Assembly (NCBI GenBank): GCA_030526265.1
Contig: JAUNDE010000008.1
Coordinates: 8,943-72,942 of the forward strand
Source: Eubacteriales bacterium
Lineage (GTDB): Bacteria; Bacillota; Clostridia; Lachnospirales; Lachnospiraceae
Length of the DNA: 64,000 nucleotides
Direction of reading: 5' to 3'
Under the pieces are notes generated by a model. It was not told where the DNA came from and did no database searches. It was given only the letters and a program-made list of their open reading frames with translations. Shown in pieces: positions 3,388 through 38,533 of this stretch; position 1 is the first letter of the stretch, and each line of letters opens with the position of its first letter. The position numbers and the translations under genes are program-made.

Positions 3388-5070
3388 CTATGAGAAGATC
3401 GGTTTTAATGCTTCTGCAAGTTCATCTTTCTGTGCCTGAGCTTCAGCGAGATCCTTTCCAAGAGTTGTGAAATAGGTCTTGATCTTAGGCTCTGTTCCGG
3501 AAGGACGCACGATTGCTGTAGCGCCGCCTTCTAATTCATAGATCAGAACATTTGCTGCAGGGAGACCAGTCTCCTCCGGTTTCATGTAGTCTGTTGCTTT
3601 GACTACTTTGTATTTACCAATCTCTGCCGGCGGATTGTTACGAAGATCCTGCATGATACCAGTCATCTTGTCCATACCTGTAAGTCCAGGGAACTCGAAG
3701 CTGTCGATCTTGTTGAGGTAACGTCCGTATTCTGCGTAGATTTCTTCCATTCTCTGCTTGAGCGAGCTTCCGATGCTTCTGTAGTAAGCAGCCATCTCGC
3801 AGATAAGCATTGATCCTATCACGGCATCTTTGTCTCTTACGTAAGGTCCTGCAAGGTATCCATAGCTTTCTTCAAATCCGAAGATGAAGCGGTCTACTTC
3901 ACCAGCTGCCTCAAGACGTGCGATCTGGTCGCCGATCCATTTGAATCCTGTCAGTGTATGTCTGAGTTCTACACCGTAGTGTTCAGCCACTGCATCTGCA
4001 AGTGGAGTAGATACGATGGATTTTACTGCAACCGGATTCTCTGGCATTGTGCCTTTTTCGATACGACCTGCACAGATGTAGTCAAGAAGGAGAACACCTA
4101 CTTCGTTACCGCTTACGAGTTCGTAAGATCCATCCGGGCACTTCATTGCGATACCGACACGGTCTGCATCCGGGTCAGTAGCGAGCATAAGGTCAGCGTC
4201 TGTCTCTTTGGCAAGTTCAAGTCCTTTTTCAAGAGCTTCGAAAATTTCCGGGTTTGGATAACTGCATGTTGTAAAGTATCCATTTGGATATTCCTGCTCA
4301 GGAACGATCGTGATATCTGTGATACCGATATCTTTGAGTACCTGTGTGACCGGAATCAGTCCGGAACCGTTCAGTGGGCTGTATACAAGCTTCAGGCCGG
4401 CTTCTTTGCAGAGACCCGGACGAACCTGACGTGATTCGATTGCTTCGTACAGTGCTTTCTTGCAGTCATCGCCTACGAAACGGATGAGTCCTTTTTCCAC
4501 ACCTTCTGCGAATGATATGTAATTTGCCCCGGTAAGGACATCTGTTTTCTGGATCTCTTCGTATACGATCGCTGCTGCATCATCAGTCATCTGACATCCG
4601 TCCGGACCGTATGCTTTGTATCCGTTATATTTCGCCGGATTGTGAGATGCAGTAACCATGATACCTGCATTACAGTTGTAATAGCGTGTCGCAAAGGAAA
4701 GTGCAGGTACCGGCATCAATGCGTCATAGATGCGGACATTGATTCCGTTAGCAGCCAGTACTCCGGCTGCTGTCTTTGCGAAAACATCACTTTTCAGACG
4801 GCTGTCATAGCTGATCGCTACTGTCTGGGTTCCGCCCTGTGTTTTCACCCAGTTTGCAAGTCCCTGTGTTGCCTGACGAACAACATAAATATTCATACGG
4901 TTTGTTCCGGCGCCAAGCACTCCGCGAAGACCTGCTGTTCCAAATTTAAGAGCTACGGCAAAGCGCTCTTTGATTTCGTTGTCATTGTCTTTGATGCCGG
5001 ACAGTTCAGGCAATAAATCCGGATCTTCCAGATCAGCTGCCATCCAGCGCATATACTCTTCCTGATACAT
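3388..5070 (-). CDS. pgm: Phosphoglucomutase/phosphomannomutase (alpha-D-phosphohexomutase)
   Basis: FGTAGLRG, TASHNP (phospho-Ser), ATDPDADR (metal loop), FEESYG and RPSGTEPKIK. Start moved to the ATG at 5070 (MYQEEY), which has a GGAGTGG RBS; the ORF track starts at 5088. Confidence 0.93.
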   Translation of the reverse strand: MYQEEYMRWMAADLEDPDLLPELSGIKDNDNEIKERFAVALKFGTAGLRGVLGAGTNRMNIYVVRQATQGLANWVKTQGGTQTVAISYDSRLKSDVFAKTAAGVLAANGINVRIYDALMPVPALSFATRYYNCNAGIMVTASHNPAKYNGYKAYGPDGCQMTDDAAAIVYEEIQKTDVLTGANYISFAEGVEKGLIRFVGDDCKKALYEAIESRQVRPGLCKEAGLKLVYSPLNGSGLIPVTQVLKDIGITDITIVPEQEYPNGYFTTCSYPNPEIFEALEKGLELAKETDADLMLATDPDADRVGIAMKCPDGSYELVSGNEVGVLLLDYICAGRIEKGTMPENPVAVKSIVSTPLADAVAEHYGVELRHTLTGFKWIGDQIARLEAAGEVDRFIFGFEESYGYLAGPYVRDKDAVIGSMLICEMAAYYRSIGSSLKQRMEEIYAEYGRYLNKIDSFEFPGLTGMDKMTGIMQDLRNNPPAEIGKYKVVKATDYMKPEETGLPAANVLIYELEGGATAIVRPSGTEPKIKTYFTTLGKDLAEAQAQKDELAEALKPIFS

Positions 5071-30222: not shown

Positions 30223-30921
30223 ATGAATGGAAAAGAACGGTTAAGTGAGCTTGACTTTTTTAAGCATGTATCAGATGAAACATTGAATGAACTATGGGCT
30301 AAGGGAACGGTGGAACGATGTCTGAAGGGAACGGTGATACGCAGGGCGAAGGAATTGAATCAGAATGTCTATTTTCAGGTGAGCGGCAAGTCTGTCGTAT
30401 ACAATCTGACTCATACCGGAAGAAGAAAGATTATTTTTATATTGGGCAAAGGACATATGCTGAATGGACATATCATTCAGAATCATGTGGCTTCCCTTTT
30501 CATCGAGACAATTGAGGAAAGCAGTATCTTTCGCGTTCCAATCTCTGCTTTCATAAATGCAATGAAAAAAGATTTTACACTTGTGGAAGCCGTACTGACC
30601 GCACAGGAGACGAAAATCTGGAGACTTGGGCATCAGTTGAAAAATACGATGGGAAGTATTTATATGGAACGCAAACTTGCTGCAAAGCTTTGGAAATTAT
30701 CGAGAGATTTCGGAAAAGAAACGAAAGATGGCATCGAAATTGATCTTAATCTGCCGATCACCTTCCTGGCGGACATGCTTGGCGCACCGCGAGAGACAAC
30801 ATCGAGACTGTGCAGTACATTGATGGAGTATGATTTGATCAGAATCAATAAGAAAAGAATTACGATTGTGGACAAAGATCGAATGGCTCATTTTTATAAA
30901 ACAGGAGAATATTATTTATAA
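30223..30921 (+). CDS. Crp/Fnr family transcriptional regulator (HcpR/Dnr-like; no Fnr Cys cluster)
   Basis: N-terminal cNMP-binding-like domain; C-terminal ERKLAAKL...LPITFLADMLGAPRETTSR helix-turn-helix. Confidence 0.92.
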   Translation: MNGKERLSELDFFKHVSDETLNELWAKGTVERCLKGTVIRRAKELNQNVYFQVSGKSVVYNLTHTGRRKIIFILGKGHMLNGHIIQNHVASLFIETIEESSIFRVPISAFINAMKKDFTLVEAVLTAQETKIWRLGHQLKNTMGSIYMERKLAAKLWKLSRDFGKETKDGIEIDLNLPITFLADMLGAPRETTSRLCSTLMEYDLIRINKKRITIVDKDRMAHFYKTGEYYL

Positions 30922-30931
30922 TGCAAAAATC

Positions 30932-30974
30932 TGTGACTTTTGTCACGGATTTTTTTTGATAATTTTGAGACAAT
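30932..30974 (+). promoter_or_regulatory. Crp-family box at -41.5 plus extended -10 upstream of asrA; the same inverted repeat can also terminate the regulator gene
   Basis: TGTGA-CTTTTG-TCACG (30932-30947, centre 30939.5) and TG-A-GACAAT (30966-30974). Confidence 0.65.
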
Positions 30975-31007
30975 GTACTTAAATATAAAGACGCGAAAGG
31001 AGACATT

Positions 31008-31997
31008 ATGGGATATCAGTTATCAAAACAAGAAGCTTCAAAACTGTTTGCAAAATGGACAGAATGTTTTGACGTATTTGCTCCTGTTCTGAAAAAAGGA
31101 GAGGGATGTTTTTCGGATACGGATATCATCCGTTATGACAAAGTAAAGAATCTGGATGAGATTGAGTGGGAGAAAAAATCGGATTATTCATTCAAAGAGG
31201 CATTGCTGTCGATCAATCAGACTATTTTTTATTACACGGAAGATCAGACAACTGTTCCGAAAGGACCGGAAAAGGATCTTTTGATTTTCCTTCGTTCGTG
31301 TGACCTTCATGCGGTGAGGAGACTTGACGATATTTATCTGAACAATGGCTTTGAAGATCTCTACTATTCGAGAGTGCGCGAGCGGGCAAAATTCATTCTT
31401 ATGGGATGTGAGGAGACTTGTTCGACCGGATTTTGTGTAAGTATGGGAACAAACAGATCAGACAATTATGACGCATACATCAAACTGGACGGTGACGTAT
31501 GCTTCATGGACGTGAAATGTGCTGATCTGAACCCTGAAAATGCTGATGTGAAAGAAGTGGTTCCTGATTTCGTGTCAGAGAATAAGGAAAAAGTGACGCT
31601 GCCAAAGAATCTTTCCAATGAGAGCTTTACAAAGGAAATCTGGCAGGAGTACGGCGACCGCTGTATCGAATGTGGCAGATGTAATTTTGTATGTCCGACA
31701 TGTACCTGCTTCACCATGCAGGATATATTTTACAAAGATAATGCGAAGGTTGGAGAGCGAAGAAGAGTGTGGGCGTCGTGCCAGGTTGGAGGATACGATG
31801 AGATCGCCGGAGGAATTACATTCAGAAGAACCAAAGGCGACAAAGTTCGTTTTAAAGTCATGCACAAGATCCATGATCATGAAAAGCGCTTCGGATATCC
31901 GATGTGCGTAGGATGCGGACGCTGTGATGCAGTATGTCCGGAGTACATTTCCTATTCTAATTTGGTCAACCGGTTAGCAAAGGAGGAGAATGAATAA
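31008..31997 (+). CDS. asrA: Anaerobic sulfite reductase subunit A (Fe-S)
   Basis: FLRSCDLHA, RCIECGRCNFVCPTCTCF, RRRVWASC and CVGCGRCDAVCPEYI. Confidence 0.92.
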   Translation: MGYQLSKQEASKLFAKWTECFDVFAPVLKKGEGCFSDTDIIRYDKVKNLDEIEWEKKSDYSFKEALLSINQTIFYYTEDQTTVPKGPEKDLLIFLRSCDLHAVRRLDDIYLNNGFEDLYYSRVRERAKFILMGCEETCSTGFCVSMGTNRSDNYDAYIKLDGDVCFMDVKCADLNPENADVKEVVPDFVSENKEKVTLPKNLSNESFTKEIWQEYGDRCIECGRCNFVCPTCTCFTMQDIFYKDNAKVGERRRVWASCQVGGYDEIAGGITFRRTKGDKVRFKVMHKIHDHEKRFGYPMCVGCGRCDAVCPEYISYSNLVNRLAKEENE

Positions 31998-32788
31998 TGA
32001 AAAATGAATATATTCCTCAGTTGTCAAAAATTTTAAAAGTAGTGAAACATACAAATTTAGAATACACATTCACAATGGAATTTGAAGGAGATGTGAAACC
32101 GGGACAGTTCTTCGAAGTGTCAATTCCGAAATTTGGAGAGGCACCGATCTCGGTAAGCGGAATCGGAGAAGGGACTGTTGATTTTACGATCCGCCGTGTG
32201 GGCAAAGTGACAAACGAAATCTTTGAAAACTATGTTGGTGATTCTTTCTTTATCCGTGGACCATATGGAAATGGGTTTGATGTAGAGAATTACAAAGGAA
32301 AAGAAATCGTTGTTGTTGCCGGTGGTACAGGTCTTTCCCCTGTTCGTGGAGTCGTGGATTACTTTGCGGAACATACAGATGAAGCGGTAAGCACGACACT
32401 GATCTCAGGATTCAAATCTCCTGACGATGTGCTCTTCAAGGAAGATTTTGAAAGATGGAATGAAAAAATCAATGTAATCAAAACTGTCGACCGTGCACCG
32501 GAAGGATATGACGGACCGGTTGGAATGGTTACGCAGTACATTCCGGATCTTACATTTGAAAATATCAAAAATGCGGTATTTATCTGTGTAGGACCTCCGA
32601 TCATGATCAAATTTACAATCATGGCAATTCAGAAGCTTGGCGTGACAGATCAGCAGATCTGGGTTTCTCATGAGAGAAAGATGTGTTGTGGTCTTGGTAA
32701 ATGCGGACACTGCAGAATCGGCTCTACATATATCTGCCTTGACGGACCTGTATTTAACTATGTGGACGGAAAAGAATTAATCGATTAA
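31997..32788 (+). CDS. asrB: Anaerobic sulfite reductase subunit B (FAD/NAD, 2Fe-2S)
   Basis: PGQFFEVS, GEAPIS, IRGPYGNGF, AGGTGLSP, VGPPIM and ERKMCCGLGKCGHC...CLDGPVF. Confidence 0.93.
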   Translation: MKNEYIPQLSKILKVVKHTNLEYTFTMEFEGDVKPGQFFEVSIPKFGEAPISVSGIGEGTVDFTIRRVGKVTNEIFENYVGDSFFIRGPYGNGFDVENYKGKEIVVVAGGTGLSPVRGVVDYFAEHTDEAVSTTLISGFKSPDDVLFKEDFERWNEKINVIKTVDRAPEGYDGPVGMVTQYIPDLTFENIKNAVFICVGPPIMIKFTIMAIQKLGVTDQQIWVSHERKMCCGLGKCGHCRIGSTYICLDGPVFNYVDGKELID

Positions 32789-32800
32789 GGGGGCACTGGT

Positions 32801-33775
32801 ATGGGATTAGATATTAATACAAAGAAATTAAAGAAGAATGCATTCCGTGTATCAAAAGTTCGTGGAATCGGTGCATCCAGAATTCGTGTTCCAGGTGGTT
32901 ATCTGAATGCAGAAGTTCTCGGAATGGTTCAGGAAATTGCGCAGGAATATGGTAATGGATATGTGCATCTGACAACAAGACAGGGATTTGAGATCGAAGG
33001 TATCCGCTATGAAGACATGGATGAGATCAATAAAAAGCTTCAGCCAATCATCGACATGGTGGGAACGAATCAGACGGATCCGGGCACAGGATATGCTGCA
33101 TCGGGAACAAGAAATATCTCGGCCTGTATCGGAAATAATGTCTGTCCGTTTGCGAACTATAATACAGCGGAACTGGCAAGAAGGATCGATAAGGCGATAT
33201 TCCCGAATGACCTTCATTTCAAAATTGCGTGTACTGGATGTTCCAATGACTGTGCAAAGGCGAGAATGCATGATTTCGGCATTATCGGACAGACGATCCC
33301 ACAGTATGATCCGACACGCTGTGTGGCATGTCAGGCTTGTATCAAGGGCTGCAAGAGTTTGTCTGTAGATGCGCTTCGCATGGAAAATTACAAAATTATA
33401 AGAGATACAGAGAAATGTATCGGGTGCGGTGTCTGTATCACCAAATGTCCGACACGTGCGCTCACAAGAAGTCCGAAGAAATACTATAAGCTTGCAATCA
33501 TGGGAAGAACAGGAAAGAAGAATCCAAGACTGGGTCAGGATTTTCTTGTCTGGGCAGATGCCGACAATATCATTAAGATCATTCAGAATACATACGCATT
33601 TGTTGAAGAATATATTTCTCCGGATGCACCTGCAAGAAAAGAGCATATCGGCTACATTATTGACCGCGTAGGATTTGAAGAATATAAAAAATGGGCACTT
33701 AAAGATGTTGAACTGATGCCGGAGACCATCATGAAAGAATGCGTATACTGGAATGGTATCGATTTTAAACATTAG
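32801..33775 (+). CDS. asrC: Anaerobic sulfite reductase subunit C (siroheme-[4Fe-4S])
   Basis: RIRVPGG, HLTTRQGFEI, SACIGNNVC, KIACTGCSNDC (siroheme ligands) and two ferredoxin motifs CVACQAC..C and CIGCGVC..KC. Confidence 0.93.
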   Translation: MGLDINTKKLKKNAFRVSKVRGIGASRIRVPGGYLNAEVLGMVQEIAQEYGNGYVHLTTRQGFEIEGIRYEDMDEINKKLQPIIDMVGTNQTDPGTGYAASGTRNISACIGNNVCPFANYNTAELARRIDKAIFPNDLHFKIACTGCSNDCAKARMHDFGIIGQTIPQYDPTRCVACQACIKGCKSLSVDALRMENYKIIRDTEKCIGCGVCITKCPTRALTRSPKKYYKLAIMGRTGKKNPRLGQDFLVWADADNIIKIIQNTYAFVEEYISPDAPARKEHIGYIIDRVGFEEYKKWALKDVELMPETIMKECVYWNGIDFKH

Positions 33776-33790
33776 TGAGGGGAGAGCAGT

Positions 33791-35899
33791 ATGAAAAAAG
33801 TACAATCTATCTGTAATTATTGTGCGATTGATTGCAGTCTTGATTTTTTTGTAAATGAAGATGCGAATCAGATTGAAGCTGTGAAGCCTACACCTGGGTA
33901 TCCGGTCAATGACGGTTTCTGCTGTATCAAGGGCTTGTCGCTTGATAAACAGCAGACGGTTGTGGATAAACCACACACTCCGAGAGTCCGTATGCAGGAC
34001 GGCAGCTACGCATATCCGGGATGGGATTACACGTTTGCATATATTGCGAAACGCTTCAGAGAGATTCAGGAGAAATATGGATATGAAGCGATTGCAGGAA
34101 TTTCTACCGGACAGCTTACGATGGAGGAATTTGCGATTAACGGACATATTTTACGTGACCATATGCACACAAATGTGGATGGCAATACGAGACTTTGCAT
34201 GGCATCCGCTGTGGTTGCCCATAAGCAGAGTTACGGCTTTGATGCTCCCGGATATACACTGAAAGATTTAGAACTGTCTGACACGATCATACTGATCGGC
34301 TCTAATCCGGTTGTTGCGCATCCGATCGTATGGGATCGAATCAGAAAAAACACAGATAAAAAATTAATCGTGATCGACCCGAGAAGATCCGAGACAGCAA
34401 AAAATGCGGACTACCATTACCGGATTAAGTCCAAAATGGATTCAACACTTTTCTACGGACTTGCAAATTATTTTATTTCAAATGATCTGATTGACCATGC
34501 GTTTATCGAGACACATACCAATCGTTTTGAGGAATATAAAGAGTTCGTGAAAGATTTTCCGATGGAAAAGGTTGCAGCGGATACGGATCTGTCAGTAGAT
34601 GAGATCCATGAACTGATTGAACTGATCAAGAATGGAAAACGGGTATCGATGTGGTGGACAATGGGAATCAACCAGTCTCACAACGCGGTTCGTGCTGCAC
34701 AGTCTATCATCAATCTCCAGCTGCTGCTTGGCAATTATGGAAAACCAGGTACAGGAGCGAACTCGATCACCGGTCAGTGTAATGCGATGGGATCGCGATT
34801 ATTCTCCAACCAGGCATCACTATACGGACATCCATTCGATAATCCGGATGCAAGGAAGAAGGTTGCAGGTATTTTCCACTGCGACGAGGAGATTCTGGCA
34901 AAAGGTCCGACGAAGACATACAACCAGATAATCGAGGGAATCAACAATGGGGACATCAAAGCACTTTGGATTATCTGTACGAACCCGAGGCATTCCTGGA
35001 CAAACAATGTGACATTTAAAAAAGCGATTGAGAACCTTGAGTTTTATGTCGTTCAGGATATTTATGATGATATTGAGAGTGCGGATGATTATGATGTATT
35101 TCTCCCGGCAGTACCAGGAATCAAGAAGGAAGGTACGTATGTGAATCTGGAACGTCGTCTTGGCCGTATGATTCCGGCTTTGAAACCTGATGAAGATGAG
35201 AAAAATGATTATCAGATCATGTACGGAATCGCGAAGGCGATGGGATTCGAGGACATCATCGAGTATTGGAAGACGCCGGAAGACTGCTTTAATCTGATGA
35301 GAGCGTGTTCAAAGGGACGTCCATTCGATTTTACAGGAGTGTCATACAGGGGACTTGAGTTCTCGCATGGTGTTCAGTGGCCATTCAGGGAAGGCGAAGT
35401 GTTAGAAGAAGATGAGCGAAGACTGTACGCGGACGGTAAGTTTTTCCATCCGGATGGAAAAGCAGTCTTTATGTTCGAGCCGGTACCGGAAAATCCGCTG
35501 CCGCAGACAGAAGAATTCCCTTATATTTTTAATACAGGACGTGGTTCCGTAGGTCAGTGGCATACGCAGTCAAGAACAAGAGAAGTTCAGTTCGTTGAGG
35601 GTGTCAGTGCCCATCATCCATATTGTTACATTCATCCGGCTGTGGCAGACAAGTTTGGTCTGAAGCATGAAGACTGGATTATGATTCATTCCTGTAACGG
35701 GGAGAGCGCTCCGTTTGCAGTTCGTGTTACAGATGATGTGAAAGAGGATGAGATATATTGTCCGATTCATTATATCGAATGTAACAGACTGACCCCGTCT
35801 GTCTATGATCCGTATTCAAAAGAGCCAAGCTATAAGGCTGCAGTCGTAAATATTAGACCGGTTGAGGAGGGATTTGTATATGTACCGTATAAAAATTGA
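33791..35899 (+). CDS. Cytoplasmic molybdopterin oxidoreductase, Nas/NarB-type nitrate reductase catalytic subunit
   Basis: CNYCAIDC...FCCIKG ([4Fe-4S]), NTRLCMASA (Mo-Cys ligand), WWTMGINQ, SITGQCNAMG and NTGRGSVGQWHT; no Tat signal. Confidence 0.82.
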   Translation: MKKVQSICNYCAIDCSLDFFVNEDANQIEAVKPTPGYPVNDGFCCIKGLSLDKQQTVVDKPHTPRVRMQDGSYAYPGWDYTFAYIAKRFREIQEKYGYEAIAGISTGQLTMEEFAINGHILRDHMHTNVDGNTRLCMASAVVAHKQSYGFDAPGYTLKDLELSDTIILIGSNPVVAHPIVWDRIRKNTDKKLIVIDPRRSETAKNADYHYRIKSKMDSTLFYGLANYFISNDLIDHAFIETHTNRFEEYKEFVKDFPMEKVAADTDLSVDEIHELIELIKNGKRVSMWWTMGINQSHNAVRAAQSIINLQLLLGNYGKPGTGANSITGQCNAMGSRLFSNQASLYGHPFDNPDARKKVAGIFHCDEEILAKGPTKTYNQIIEGINNGDIKALWIICTNPRHSWTNNVTFKKAIENLEFYVVQDIYDDIESADDYDVFLPAVPGIKKEGTYVNLERRLGRMIPALKPDEDEKNDYQIMYGIAKAMGFEDIIEYWKTPEDCFNLMRACSKGRPFDFTGVSYRGLEFSHGVQWPFREGEVLEEDERRLYADGKFFHPDGKAVFMFEPVPENPLPQTEEFPYIFNTGRGSVGQWHTQSRTREVQFVEGVSAHHPYCYIHPAVADKFGLKHEDWIMIHSCNGESAPFAVRVTDDVKEDEIYCPIHYIECNRLTPSVYDPYSKEPSYKAAVVNIRPVEEGFVYVPYKN

Positions 35900-36305
35900 T
35901 CGTAACCGTTGTATCGGTTGTCTTATGTGCGTTACATCGTGCTGTGTCTCTCATGATACGCATGATGCGAGAAATCGTGTCGTAATCGACTCGCAGACAA
36001 AACCGGCACCAATCTTTTGCCGTCACTGTGACCGTCCGGAATGTGCGATTACCTGTATGACCGGTGCGATGAGAAAAGATGAGAAAACAGGATATGTGAT
36101 GTACGACAGAGAGCACTGCGCACATTGTTTTATGTGTGTGATGGGATGTCCGTACGGTGTGCTGAAGCCGGATGCGATTCACAATACCGAAGTAATGAAA
36201 TGTGATATGTGTGTTCACAGGAGTGAAGATGGCTCGGGGAATCCGATGTGTGTCGAGAAATGTCCGATGCATGCGATTACATTAGTGGAGGTGAGCGAAT
36301 CATGA
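35880..36305 (+). CDS. 4Fe-4S ferredoxin-type electron transfer subunit (HydN/DmsB-like)
   Basis: CIGCLMCVTSC, CRHCDRPECAITC, CAHCFMCVMGCP and KCDMC...CVEKC. Start at ATG 35880 after GAGGAGG. Confidence 0.9.
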   Translation: MYRIKIDRNRCIGCLMCVTSCCVSHDTHDARNRVVIDSQTKPAPIFCRHCDRPECAITCMTGAMRKDEKTGYVMYDREHCAHCFMCVMGCPYGVLKPDAIHNTEVMKCDMCVHRSEDGSGNPMCVEKCPMHAITLVEVSES

Positions 36306-37558
36306 AATTTGTAGTAATTGGAGCAAGTGCTGCGGGAACAAATACTGTTCGTAAACTCCGCGAACTGAACCCGGATGCTCAGATTGTGATGATTTCAGAG
36401 GATACAGCGATCTATTCCAGATGTATCCTGTATCATCACCTCAAAGGCGAACGTGATCTGGAAGGACTGAACTTTGTAGGACCAGACTTTGCGGAGCGTT
36501 TTCGGGTTGAATGGATCAAGGGTGTAAAGGCAAGCGGCATTGATACAGACCGAAATGTAGTATTGCTTGAGAATGGGGACGAAGTTTCCTATGATAAGCT
36601 CTGCATCGCGACAGGTTCTCATCCGAATTTCTTTCCGATTCCGGGACTCCGTGAAGGGAAGAATGTGACAGGCTTCCGTAATTTTTCTGACGTGGAATTT
36701 ATTGAAGAGAGAATTGAACAGGCGGAAAATATCTTTGTTCTGGGAGCCGGTCTTGTCGGTATCGATGTAGTGGCAGGTCTCATCAAATATAAAAAGCATA
36801 TTACGATTGCAGATATGGCCCCTTATATGCTGGGAATCCAGCTGGATGAATACTCGGCAGGCGTGTATCAGGAAATGTTCGCGGCTCACAATGTGGATCA
36901 GTATTATAATATGGGAGTCAGAGATTTTGTCCTGAATGAAGAGGGAAATGTTTACAAAGTCATTTTGAATGACGGAACAGAGATTCCGACCGATCTGGTC
37001 GTGAATTGTGCAGGTGTACGTGCAACAGTAGAGTTCCTGGAGGGAAGTAAGATTGAGACGGATCGGTTCGGACTTGTATTTGATACGCATGGGCAGACAA
37101 ATATACCGGATGTATATGGTGCGGGCGATGTGTCAGGGCGCGGTCCGATCTGGCCGGTAGCTGTGAAAGAAGGAATGATTGCCGCTTATAACATGAGCGG
37201 GGTTGAGATGACAATGGATGATTTTTTTACTTCCAAATCTACAATGAATTTCCTCGGACTTGCGAGCATGTCACTTGGAAAAGCAAACAGGTATGATGAT
37301 TCCTATACAGAAGAAATCTTTAAAGATCCGGAAAAGAAAATATATAAGAAGATCGTACACAAAGATGGTGTGATCACAGGTGCGATCCTTCAGGGAGACC
37401 TTTCTTACTGTGGAGTTTTGACTCAGCTGATCCGGCGAAAGATTGATGTTTCAAAGATTAAAAAGCCATTATTTGACGTCGATTATTCTGATTTCTTCCG
37501 CGTGAAAGATAACTTTGAGTTCTTGTACGAAAAGGAAGAAGAGATTGAGGTACTGTAA
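36302..37558 (+). CDS. NAD(P)H:FAD oxidoreductase (NirB N-terminal/rubredoxin reductase-like)
   Basis: VIGASAAG, YSRCIL, LCIATGS, VLGAGLVG and VYGAGDV. Start at ATG 36302 (ATGA overlap). Confidence 0.88.
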   Translation: MKFVVIGASAAGTNTVRKLRELNPDAQIVMISEDTAIYSRCILYHHLKGERDLEGLNFVGPDFAERFRVEWIKGVKASGIDTDRNVVLLENGDEVSYDKLCIATGSHPNFFPIPGLREGKNVTGFRNFSDVEFIEERIEQAENIFVLGAGLVGIDVVAGLIKYKKHITIADMAPYMLGIQLDEYSAGVYQEMFAAHNVDQYYNMGVRDFVLNEEGNVYKVILNDGTEIPTDLVVNCAGVRATVEFLEGSKIETDRFGLVFDTHGQTNIPDVYGAGDVSGRGPIWPVAVKEGMIAAYNMSGVEMTMDDFFTSKSTMNFLGLASMSLGKANRYDDSYTEEIFKDPEKKIYKKIVHKDGVITGAILQGDLSYCGVLTQLIRRKIDVSKIKKPLFDVDYSDFFRVKDNFEFLYEKEEEIEVL

Positions 37559-37603
37559 AAAGCGGTTATCCAGAAACCAGATGAAAAGAAAAGGAATAGA
37601 GTT

Positions 37604-38533
37604 ATGGAGAGATTAGAAAGAATTCCTGTTCCGGTGATTCCTACCTTTGTTGGTGCACTCACACTGAGCAACATATATGGCGGAATGGGATATACATGGG
37701 TGCGGCATTTATCAATGTGGGCGGCAACAGTGTTTATGATTTGTTATATTATAAAAATCGTAAAGTACCCGTCTACATGCAAAAAAGAATATTGTCAGGT
37801 GATCCCGGGCAGTTTATATGCTGCGTTCGCGATGGTATTGATGATACTTGGAAGTTACTATTATGATTATGCTCCGGCTGTCGGAAAAGCAATCTGGTCG
37901 ATCGCAATCGTGATCCATGCAACACATATTTTGATTTTTACATATCGCAATGTCATCAGAAAGCGCGATATGAATACATTTATGCCAAGCTGGTATGTGA
38001 CATACAATGGAATCATGGTCAGCTGCGTGACTGGCGGTGCCATGAATGCATCCGGTGTGCTTCGTGTGATTGTATTTTACGGAATTGCAGTTTATTTTGT
38101 AATCCTGCCGTTCATGCTCAGACGCCTGCTTACGGTAGAAGTCAAGGATGCGGTATATCATACAATGGCAGTTCTTCTTGCACCGTGCAGTTTGTGTGTT
38201 GTGAGTTATCTGAATGTGATTCAGAATCCAAATGCAGTCGTTCTCTATATTTTGTATGCATGCGTATTGGCTTCGTTATTATTTATCATTGTCAAGCTTC
38301 CGAAATTCTTCGCATTTTCATTTGTACCGGGTTATGCAGGGCTTACATTCCCGATGGCTATCGGTACGGTTGCGACATCAAAGATGACGGCGTTCCTTAC
38401 GGCGCAGGGAAAGGATTCTCTGGCTGCTATGACAACGCAGCTGAACGGAATTCAGCTTTATCTGACAACGATGATTGTGGGATATGTCCTTGTTAATTTT
38501 GTTGTCATGCTACTAAAGATCGAACGTAAATAG
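37604..38533 (+). CDS. TDT (TehA/SLAC1/Mae1/Ssu1) family anion transporter
   Basis: About ten hydrophobic segments, FMPSWYV and the TM9-like motif LTFPMA. Confidence 0.8.
   Translation: MERLERIPVPVIPTFVGALTLSNIYGGMGYTWVRHLSMWAATVFMICYIIKIVKYPSTCKKEYCQVIPGSLYAAFAMVLMILGSYYYDYAPAVGKAIWSIAIVIHATHILIFTYRNVIRKRDMNTFMPSWYVTYNGIMVSCVTGGAMNASGVLRVIVFYGIAVYFVILPFMLRRLLTVEVKDAVYHTMAVLLAPCSLCVVSYLNVIQNPNAVVLYILYACVLASLLFIIVKLPKFFAFSFVPGYAGLTFPMAIGTVATSKMTAFLTAQGKDSLAAMTTQLNGIQLYLTTMIVGYVLVNFVVMLLKIERK

Follow-up and report, generated by a model that had tools for sequence, protein, structure and literature searches.

The window (the whole 64,000-nt stretch of DNA analysed here, taken from a Eubacteriales bacterium of the Lachnospiraceae; GCA_030526265.1, contig JAUNDE010000008.1, positions 8,943-72,942 of the forward strand) contains a Crp/Fnr-family regulator gene, followed on the same strand by a seven-gene operon (Table 1). 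Matches to PF00027 (E = 9e-8) and PF13545 (E = 4e-13), both over the gathering cut-off, place the encoded protein in the Crp/Fnr superfamily. The products of the first three genes of the operon, AsrA, AsrB and AsrC, each correspond to an NCBIfam equivalog with a score over the cut-off; further along, the nitrate reductase is of the molybdopterin type, cytoplasmic and NasC/NarA-like, and the NADH oxidoreductase is NirB-N-like. Intergenic gaps throughout asrABC-narABC-tdt are no longer than 45 nt, with a ribosome-binding site, AAAGGAGA, at 30996-31003 ahead of the asrA ATG at 31008. To the 5' side of the locus we see genes for Moco biosynthesis along with modABC; past the operon come gltB, gltD and an amtB-glnK fusion. 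A cupin-only open reading frame of 107 aa (PF07883; 29735-30058, minus strand), resembling the C-terminal domain of PuuR without an HTH, sits just 5' of the regulator gene. The 5' neighbours of the regulator gene vary between relatives, and the regions upstream of the regulator genes hold no motif common to the species compared.

Table 1. Genes and predicted elements at the locus, in window positions.
Feature	Positions	Strand	Details
Crp/Fnr-family regulator gene, 232 aa	30223..30921	+	cNMP-binding-like sensor domain plus HTH_Crp_2; recognition helix R-E-T-T-S-R; stop codon TAA, 30919-30921
Predicted intrinsic terminator of the regulator gene	30925..30957	+	begins 3 nt past the stop codon; stem AAAAATCTGTGAC (30925-30937)/GTCACGGATTTTT (30942-30954); loop UUUU (TTTT, 30938-30941); T8 at 30950-30957, overlapping the end of the right arm
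Predicted Crp-type operator TGTGAC-TTTT-GTCACG	30932..30947	.	half-sites TGTGA 30932-30936 and TCACG 30943-30947; family core GTGA 30933-36, N6, TCAC 30943-46; centre (midpoint) 30939.5
Degenerate copy (12/18) of second palindrome TTGATAAAATATTATCAA	30965..30982	.	window reads TTGAGACAATGTACTTAA
Extended -10 element TG-a-GACAAT	30966..30974	+	TG 30966-67, A 30968, GACAAT 30969-74; register equals TGnTAAAAT of relatives; hexamer start 29.5 bp from box centre
Predicted transcription start of the asrABC-narABC-tdt operon, ~30981	30979..30983	+	placed from the -10 position; leader ~27 nt
Putative target operon: asrA, asrB, asrC, NasC/NarA-like nitrate reductase, Fe-S subunit, NADH oxidoreductase, TDT-family anion transporter	31008..38533	+	NCBIfam equivalogs plus family matches

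The gap between the regulator gene and asrA holds a palindrome that can be read at two levels: as a compact Crp-type ‘box’ and as the core of a longer hairpin running into a tract of T's, with an extended -10 element lying beyond. The coordinates that the initial annotation gave for box, hairpin, T run and extended -10 are all correct on direct reading. The 13-bp arms are fully complementary save for a single T.G (30932/30947), the stem core TCTGTGAC/GTCACGGA having one U.G. A Crp-type box is indeed present, but the ‘one mismatch to the Crp consensus’ with which it had been described has little bearing here; measured against the family's own consensus, YGTGAY-N4-RTCACR, TCACG is a normal variant.

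Taken by itself the box is no rarity. A match with at most one mismatch turns up in 71 of 100 shuffles of the window, and the genome scan for GTGAC-N4-GTCAC that had been proposed as a check, whilst it recovers the window site, yields 2 exact copies in the 2.23-Mb genome, equal to the ~2 that we estimate from composition. The other copy falls inside a tet(M/W)-like coding gene. This 900-aa open reading frame (C105:3028-5730), which holds the genome's only other exact match, resembles tetracycline-resistance genes of the Tet(M/W/O) ribosomal-protection type. With the box alone at chance level, the case rests on comparison with relatives. A 24-nt scoring matrix built from 31 orthologous sites gives the window site 32.6 bits in its own genome, the runner-up reaching 15.8 bits within a long open frame; neither this matrix nor the pattern scan finds a second high-scoring site there, a pattern pointing to a local regulator.

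A first scan of relatives covered 32 loci, nearly all from Lachnospiraceae MAGs, with regulators 48-64% identical. GTGA-N6-TCAC lies 3' of the regulator gene in 31 of them, preceding asrA in most and the nitrate-reductase gene (narA) in L015, L018, L020, L025 and L029-31. In a gap-free alignment of the 32 loci, all of GTGA and all but one base of TCAC are invariant, that one base changes rarely, and the 4-nt loop is variable. A profile-based scan took in 217 relatives, with counts drawn from the best 80 species: a box of at least 17 bits lies downstream of the regulator, before asrA or the nitrate-reductase gene, in 75 of these 80, the other five having either a variant or truncated box (four) or an upstream box (one). 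The regulators of these ~80 species are 47-65% identical, GTGA/TCAC nonetheless remaining fixed. The distance from regulator to box ranges from 6 to 1075 nt across species, and where genes have been inserted between the two on the opposite strand (L009, L017, L021) the box still adjoins asrA; judging from these arrangements, the box travels with the target promoter and not with the 3' end of the regulator gene. The inserted genes are, by eye, a 187-aa Uma2-like gene in L009 (3782-4345, minus strand), another Uma2-like insert in L017, and genes of 105 aa and 125 aa in L021 (3835-4658, minus strand), the former antitoxin-like. A pattern scan of the whole collection is far less selective; among the matches listed, most are chance occurrences in unrelated phyla, with true sites beside the regulator or asr/nar genes at 14 of 80 loci.

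Read as RNA of the regulator gene, the same palindrome has the features of an intrinsic terminator. The window hairpin scores -16.1 kcal/mol (z = -5.55 against shuffles); for boxes downstream of the regulator the median is ~-15 kcal/mol, with at least six T's in the eight positions after the stem in 68 of 75. The lower stem varies by compensatory change: pair 14/29 occurs as UA (15), CG (11) or UG (4), and pair 11/32 as UA (20) or AU (6). All 500 column shuffles score below the observed covariation, and sliding the register lowers pairing from 93% to ~40%. Among flank pairs, G.U is preferred over C.A by 44 to 5, as expected of a plus-strand RNA. The T-run and common descent both swell this ratio, which stands at 11 to 2 for the two flank positions next to the core. 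Some of the half-site covariation could reflect co-evolution with the protein instead of RNA pairing. A simple terminator scan missed the plus-strand hairpin of the window; we think that it counted the paired T's as stem, leaving its tail rule short of T's.

One lineage with an indel (L002, L003, L009, L011, L017) keeps GTGA-N6-TCAC but has its left half-site in the loop, an outer arm, TCYGTGGCA, restoring a 9-bp stem. Seen for example at L009:4451-4492, this variant reads a-TCYGTGGCA-tttt-GTGA-tcaa-TGTCACRGA-tttttt, with the GTG arm duplicated and the left half-site lying within a 12-nt loop.

Relatives in which operator and terminator have come apart provide, on this comparison, the strongest evidence that two functions share one sequence. 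In L028 the regulator and asrA are only 38 nt apart with no box between them; two boxes lie instead in the divergent narA/regulator gap, each accompanied in register by TGtTAAAAT or TGtTAAGAT, lacking a T-run and folding weakly. This locus (L028:2320-2965, an Oscillospiraceae MAG) has its nitrate-reductase gene divergent from a regulator-asrABC operon, with one box per promoter, an arrangement suggesting autoregulation. A further box, lacking a T-run (z = -1.4), lies upstream of the regulator gene in L236 and L238. The regulator gene of L223 ends in a separate hairpin (-22.8 kcal/mol, followed by U7); the box comes 90 nt later and lacks a T-run, with z = -0.07. Across these five ‘non-terminator’ boxes (two in L028, one each in L223, L236 and L238) the -10 register is kept within 1 bp and there is neither a T-run nor a significant hairpin; the distal flank, TTCY elsewhere, is not conserved, and the promoter-side RGA is mostly kept.

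These loci bear directly on the idea that the palindrome is an operator and nothing more, its extended stem and T-run being incidental to an AT-rich or promoter context and the regulator and operon not being insulated from one another. Two observations lean that way: low-depth metatranscriptome contigs from relatives cross the hairpin, which could reflect either read-through or DNA, and in L009 and L017 the T-run persists although the box no longer directly abuts the regulator gene. (Logan contigs from Enterocloster bolteae and a Blautia-like relative lack the depth and continuity needed to place starts or ends.) Saying this, the T-run accompanies the box in 68 of 75 cases downstream of the regulator and in 0 of 5 where the box closes no gene or stands behind a separate terminator; within the single genome of L236, the fold energy of the box behind the regulator is -16.7 kcal/mol (z = -5.1), as against z = -1.4 for the upstream box; and the distal flank is conserved solely where it is able to pair. 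We thus consider an operator without terminator function unlikely. The claim in the initial annotation that the same sequence doubles as the regulator's own terminator agrees well with these data: the extended stem and T-run are present directly behind the regulator and absent from the five non-terminator boxes.

Turning to the promoter, and counting alignment columns from the G of GTGA as column 0, we see TG at columns 33-34 and TAnnnT at columns 36-41; the hexamer is found in 30 of the 32 loci, 26 of which also have the TG, and GACAAT of the window, without the usual first T, occupies the same columns. In 68 species of the wider set of 75, 58 of them having TG as well, TAnnnT begins exactly 29.5 bp from the centre of the box; in the remainder it is shifted by one base, and at other offsets the hexamer shows no enrichment (at most 3 loci) apart from a +5 echo of the palindrome. 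Such a fixed register in relatives identifies the -10 named in the initial annotation as the window's version of a conserved element. The position of a -35 reads CRGAAT, with 2 of 6 matches to TTGACA. The box centre would accordingly lie at -41.5, a figure that presumes +1 at 7 nt past the hexamer; the class II spacing first put forward for the window, with an extended -10 and without a -35, thus appears to be a geometry kept in ~70 species. A promoter-scan match at 30893-30922 (TTTATA-18-TATAAT) would start its transcript in the hairpin's left arm, so that this would probably terminate at once. In L095 (Clostridium nigeriense; 3941-3962) the same box, with 18-bp perfect arms, is found between the last narABC-tdt gene and a second TDT-transporter gene, its TATAAT one base off the usual register, which suggests that the regulon can include a separate transporter promoter.

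Spacing this exact, to the base pair, speaks for stereospecific contact with the polymerase and so favours activation over simple occlusion. Were the regulator instead a repressor, the extended -10 would be active alone, and a dimer placed over the -35 region would block polymerase until released by an inducer; extended -10 promoters can indeed function without a -35, and a protein lying over ~-50 to -33 would get in the way of sigma region 4. Repression of this kind does not depend on precise helical phase; the spacing, however, is the same in 68 of 75 species and matches the class II distance; moreover, the -10 of the window (GACAAT) is weak, and Crp/Fnr proteins sited at -41.5 mostly activate. 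We regard a repressor as rather improbable.

The reading that we favour, and hold to be moderately probable, is one in which a single palindrome serves both as the operator for class II activation by the regulator encoded upstream and as the intrinsic terminator of that regulator's gene. As double-stranded DNA, the core GTGA-N6-TCAC would be the operator for the Crp/Fnr-family protein encoded just upstream; the bound dimer, at about -41.5 with an extended -10 and no -35, would most likely recruit RNA polymerase as a class II activator and so switch on the seven-gene asrABC-narABC-tdt operon. As RNA of the regulator gene, core, complementary flanks and eight U's together would form the terminator, and by stopping read-through this would leave the operon dependent on activation. 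That the palindrome might be a terminator alone, its likeness to a Crp box being coincidental and asrA being expressed by read-through or from an unregulated promoter, we consider very unlikely: a textbook hairpin with T8 just 3 nt past a stop codon, and a box that occurs at chance level in this genome, would fit, yet stems drift by compensatory change whereas GTGA/TCAC is fixed in ~80 species, the same core recurs at the same -10 distance (within 1 bp) without terminator features (twice in L028, and in L223 and L236/L238), and it remains with the promoter despite gene insertions.

We next consider which protein reads the box under this dual-function model. All 32 orthologues retain R-E in the recognition helix, with the third contact residue R in 28 and K in 4; Arg and Glu thus occupy the positions of Crp R180 and E181, and Arg or Lys that of R185, as expected of Crp-type specificity. 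Within the Crp/Fnr family this R-E pair correlates with G and A in GTGA-type boxes (PMC1274295). Assignment of the box to the adjacent regulator, as proposed in the initial annotation, gains from the comparison: box and regulator are co-localised in nearly all of the best 80 species, the helix is kept throughout the 32 orthologues and the genome has one site, so that binding by this protein is what we would infer. A second Crp/Fnr protein of the genome (C33:1923-2591), whose helix, R-E-V-I-T-R, carries the R-E-x-x-x-R signature too, could in principle read the box as a global regulator whilst the adjacent regulator acts elsewhere, but this is highly improbable given that in nearly all of the 80 species the box is found together with a member of the adjacent regulator's family and that a single site, with no further high-scoring site for a global factor, is the pattern of a local regulator.

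By family profile, the best solved relatives of the regulator are NtcA (1e-19) and mycobacterial Crp (7e-16), followed by CAP and DNR (7e-14). An Fnr identity was rejected: the Fnr-type Cys cluster is absent, the window protein having just two cysteines (residues C33 and C197, of which C33 is not conserved), and the box is of GTGA type as opposed to TTGAT-N4-ATCAA. Clostridial HcpR2 recognises GTAAC-N4-GTTAC, has Pro at the Crp E181 position and travels with hcp (PMC1274295); here Glu occupies the E181 position, the box is GTGA-type and the neighbours in 80 species are asrABC/narABC and not hcp, and HcpR2 was likewise set aside. NtcA was rejected since both box and helix differ and, in the alignment, the 2-oxoglutarate ligands R87 and R128 are replaced by a variable hydrophobic residue and by Lys, respectively; the NCBIfam NtcA model gives the regulator 51 bits against a cut-off of 245. 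The search, which covered published literature rather than curated regulon databases, yielded no description of this regulator family or its operator.

As for the signal, the Arg that binds cAMP or 2-oxoglutarate in the respective relatives aligns to Ser or to a hydrophobic residue, and with this key residue absent from the alignments we rate both Crp-like sensing of cAMP and NtcA-like sensing of 2-oxoglutarate, in their canonical forms, as unlikely. The initial annotation had proposed a nitrogen-oxide signal by analogy with HcpR/Dnr-type proteins. This analogy finds no support in the protein, with Glu and not Pro at the E181 position, a GTGA box and NtcA ranking above DNR; going only by what the regulon contains, one may still reasonably guess at a nitrogen oxide, nitrate or nitrite. 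The accompanying argument, that lack of an ANTAR-like leader favours a dissimilatory or detoxifying role, is weak in view of the NasC-like enzyme and the gltBD and amtB-glnK neighbours; nitrate-to-ammonium assimilation, or else fermentative ammonification, would suit a neighbourhood of Moco/molybdate genes, gltBD and amtB-glnK no less well.

Most relatives have a second, 18-bp palindrome, TTGATAAAATATTATCAA, that spans -16 to +2 and so includes the extended -10 and the predicted start; it occupies columns 32-49 after the box in L001-L027 (L007:3767-3784, for example). Its 7-4-7 shape resembles the operator of Rex, for which the general consensus is TTGTGAANNNNTTCACAA (PMC6391272). The Rex DNA-binding domain (PF06971) has no match in the window's own genome (93% complete) and is present in 31 of 32 relatives, including those without the second palindrome. 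An exact copy occurs once per genome in 7 of 8 genomes searched, which argues against a global factor such as Rex; the element may be the operator of a second, repressing factor.

More tentatively, we would extend the dual-function reading as follows. The 33-bp sequence may lie under two layers of selection, one on DNA (activator) and one on RNA (terminator), separable across the ~80 species in that the core would be frozen by the protein, with distal flank and T-run kept where a gene needs closing. [quoted passage not shown]

What results is a regulatory model, open to test, for asrABC-narABC, an operon for nitrate/nitrite reduction that is found widely among gut Lachnospiraceae and related Clostridia. 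The model has a single dedicated activator of the Crp/Fnr family, a single operator (YGTGAY-N4-RTCACR) and class II geometry with set spacing; a model this specific makes the operon's inducing signal directly assayable. The loci also form a natural data set for an operator and a terminator sharing bases, with ~70 tandem cases against 5 non-terminator cases; software that looks for terminators and for binding sites in separate steps would assign such an element to just one of the two classes.

The mode of control is in itself ordinary, but is clearly documented here, and the box, a 14-base palindrome that about 80 species of gut Clostridia keep at one set distance from the -10, is very probably the activation site of the regulator. 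Class II CRP promoters of the Escherichia coli galP1 type have in common with it GTGA-N6-TCAC, predicted here to lie at about -41.5, a TGn extended -10, the lack of a usable -35 and an R-E-x-x-x-R helix; the clostridial case differs in having a local regulator with a single site, and in the distal flank and T-run that would add a terminator. In the protein, the sensor-domain Arg that contacts the cAMP phosphate (Crp R82) aligns to Ser. Cyanobacterial nirA operon promoters controlled by NtcA resemble the arrangement predicted here in placing a Crp/Fnr activator at -41.5, with a TAN3T -10 and no -35, before an operon for nitrite and nitrate reductases. NtcA itself is a global regulator with a GTA-N8-TAC box and an R-V-T-V-T-R helix, as opposed to the local regulator, GTGA-N6-TCAC and R-E-T-T-S-R found here, and its 2-oxoglutarate-binding residue, Arg87, is here a variable hydrophobic one.

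HcpR/HcpR2 and DNR/NnrR belong to the same superfamily, also lack the cysteine cluster of Fnr and regulate redox genes for nitrogen oxides or sulfur, with Desulfovibrio HcpR recognising a Crp-like box, wTGTGA-N6-TCACAw (PMC1274295); DNR scores below NtcA and Crp as a relative of the window regulator. Lastly, in its 8-13 bp stem, 4-nt loop and 7-8 U's directly past a stop codon the element matches ordinary intrinsic terminators, from which it differs in that the upper stem is frozen in sequence and the lower stem alone covaries; the upper stem would be held fixed, we propose, because it is also the protein-binding site.
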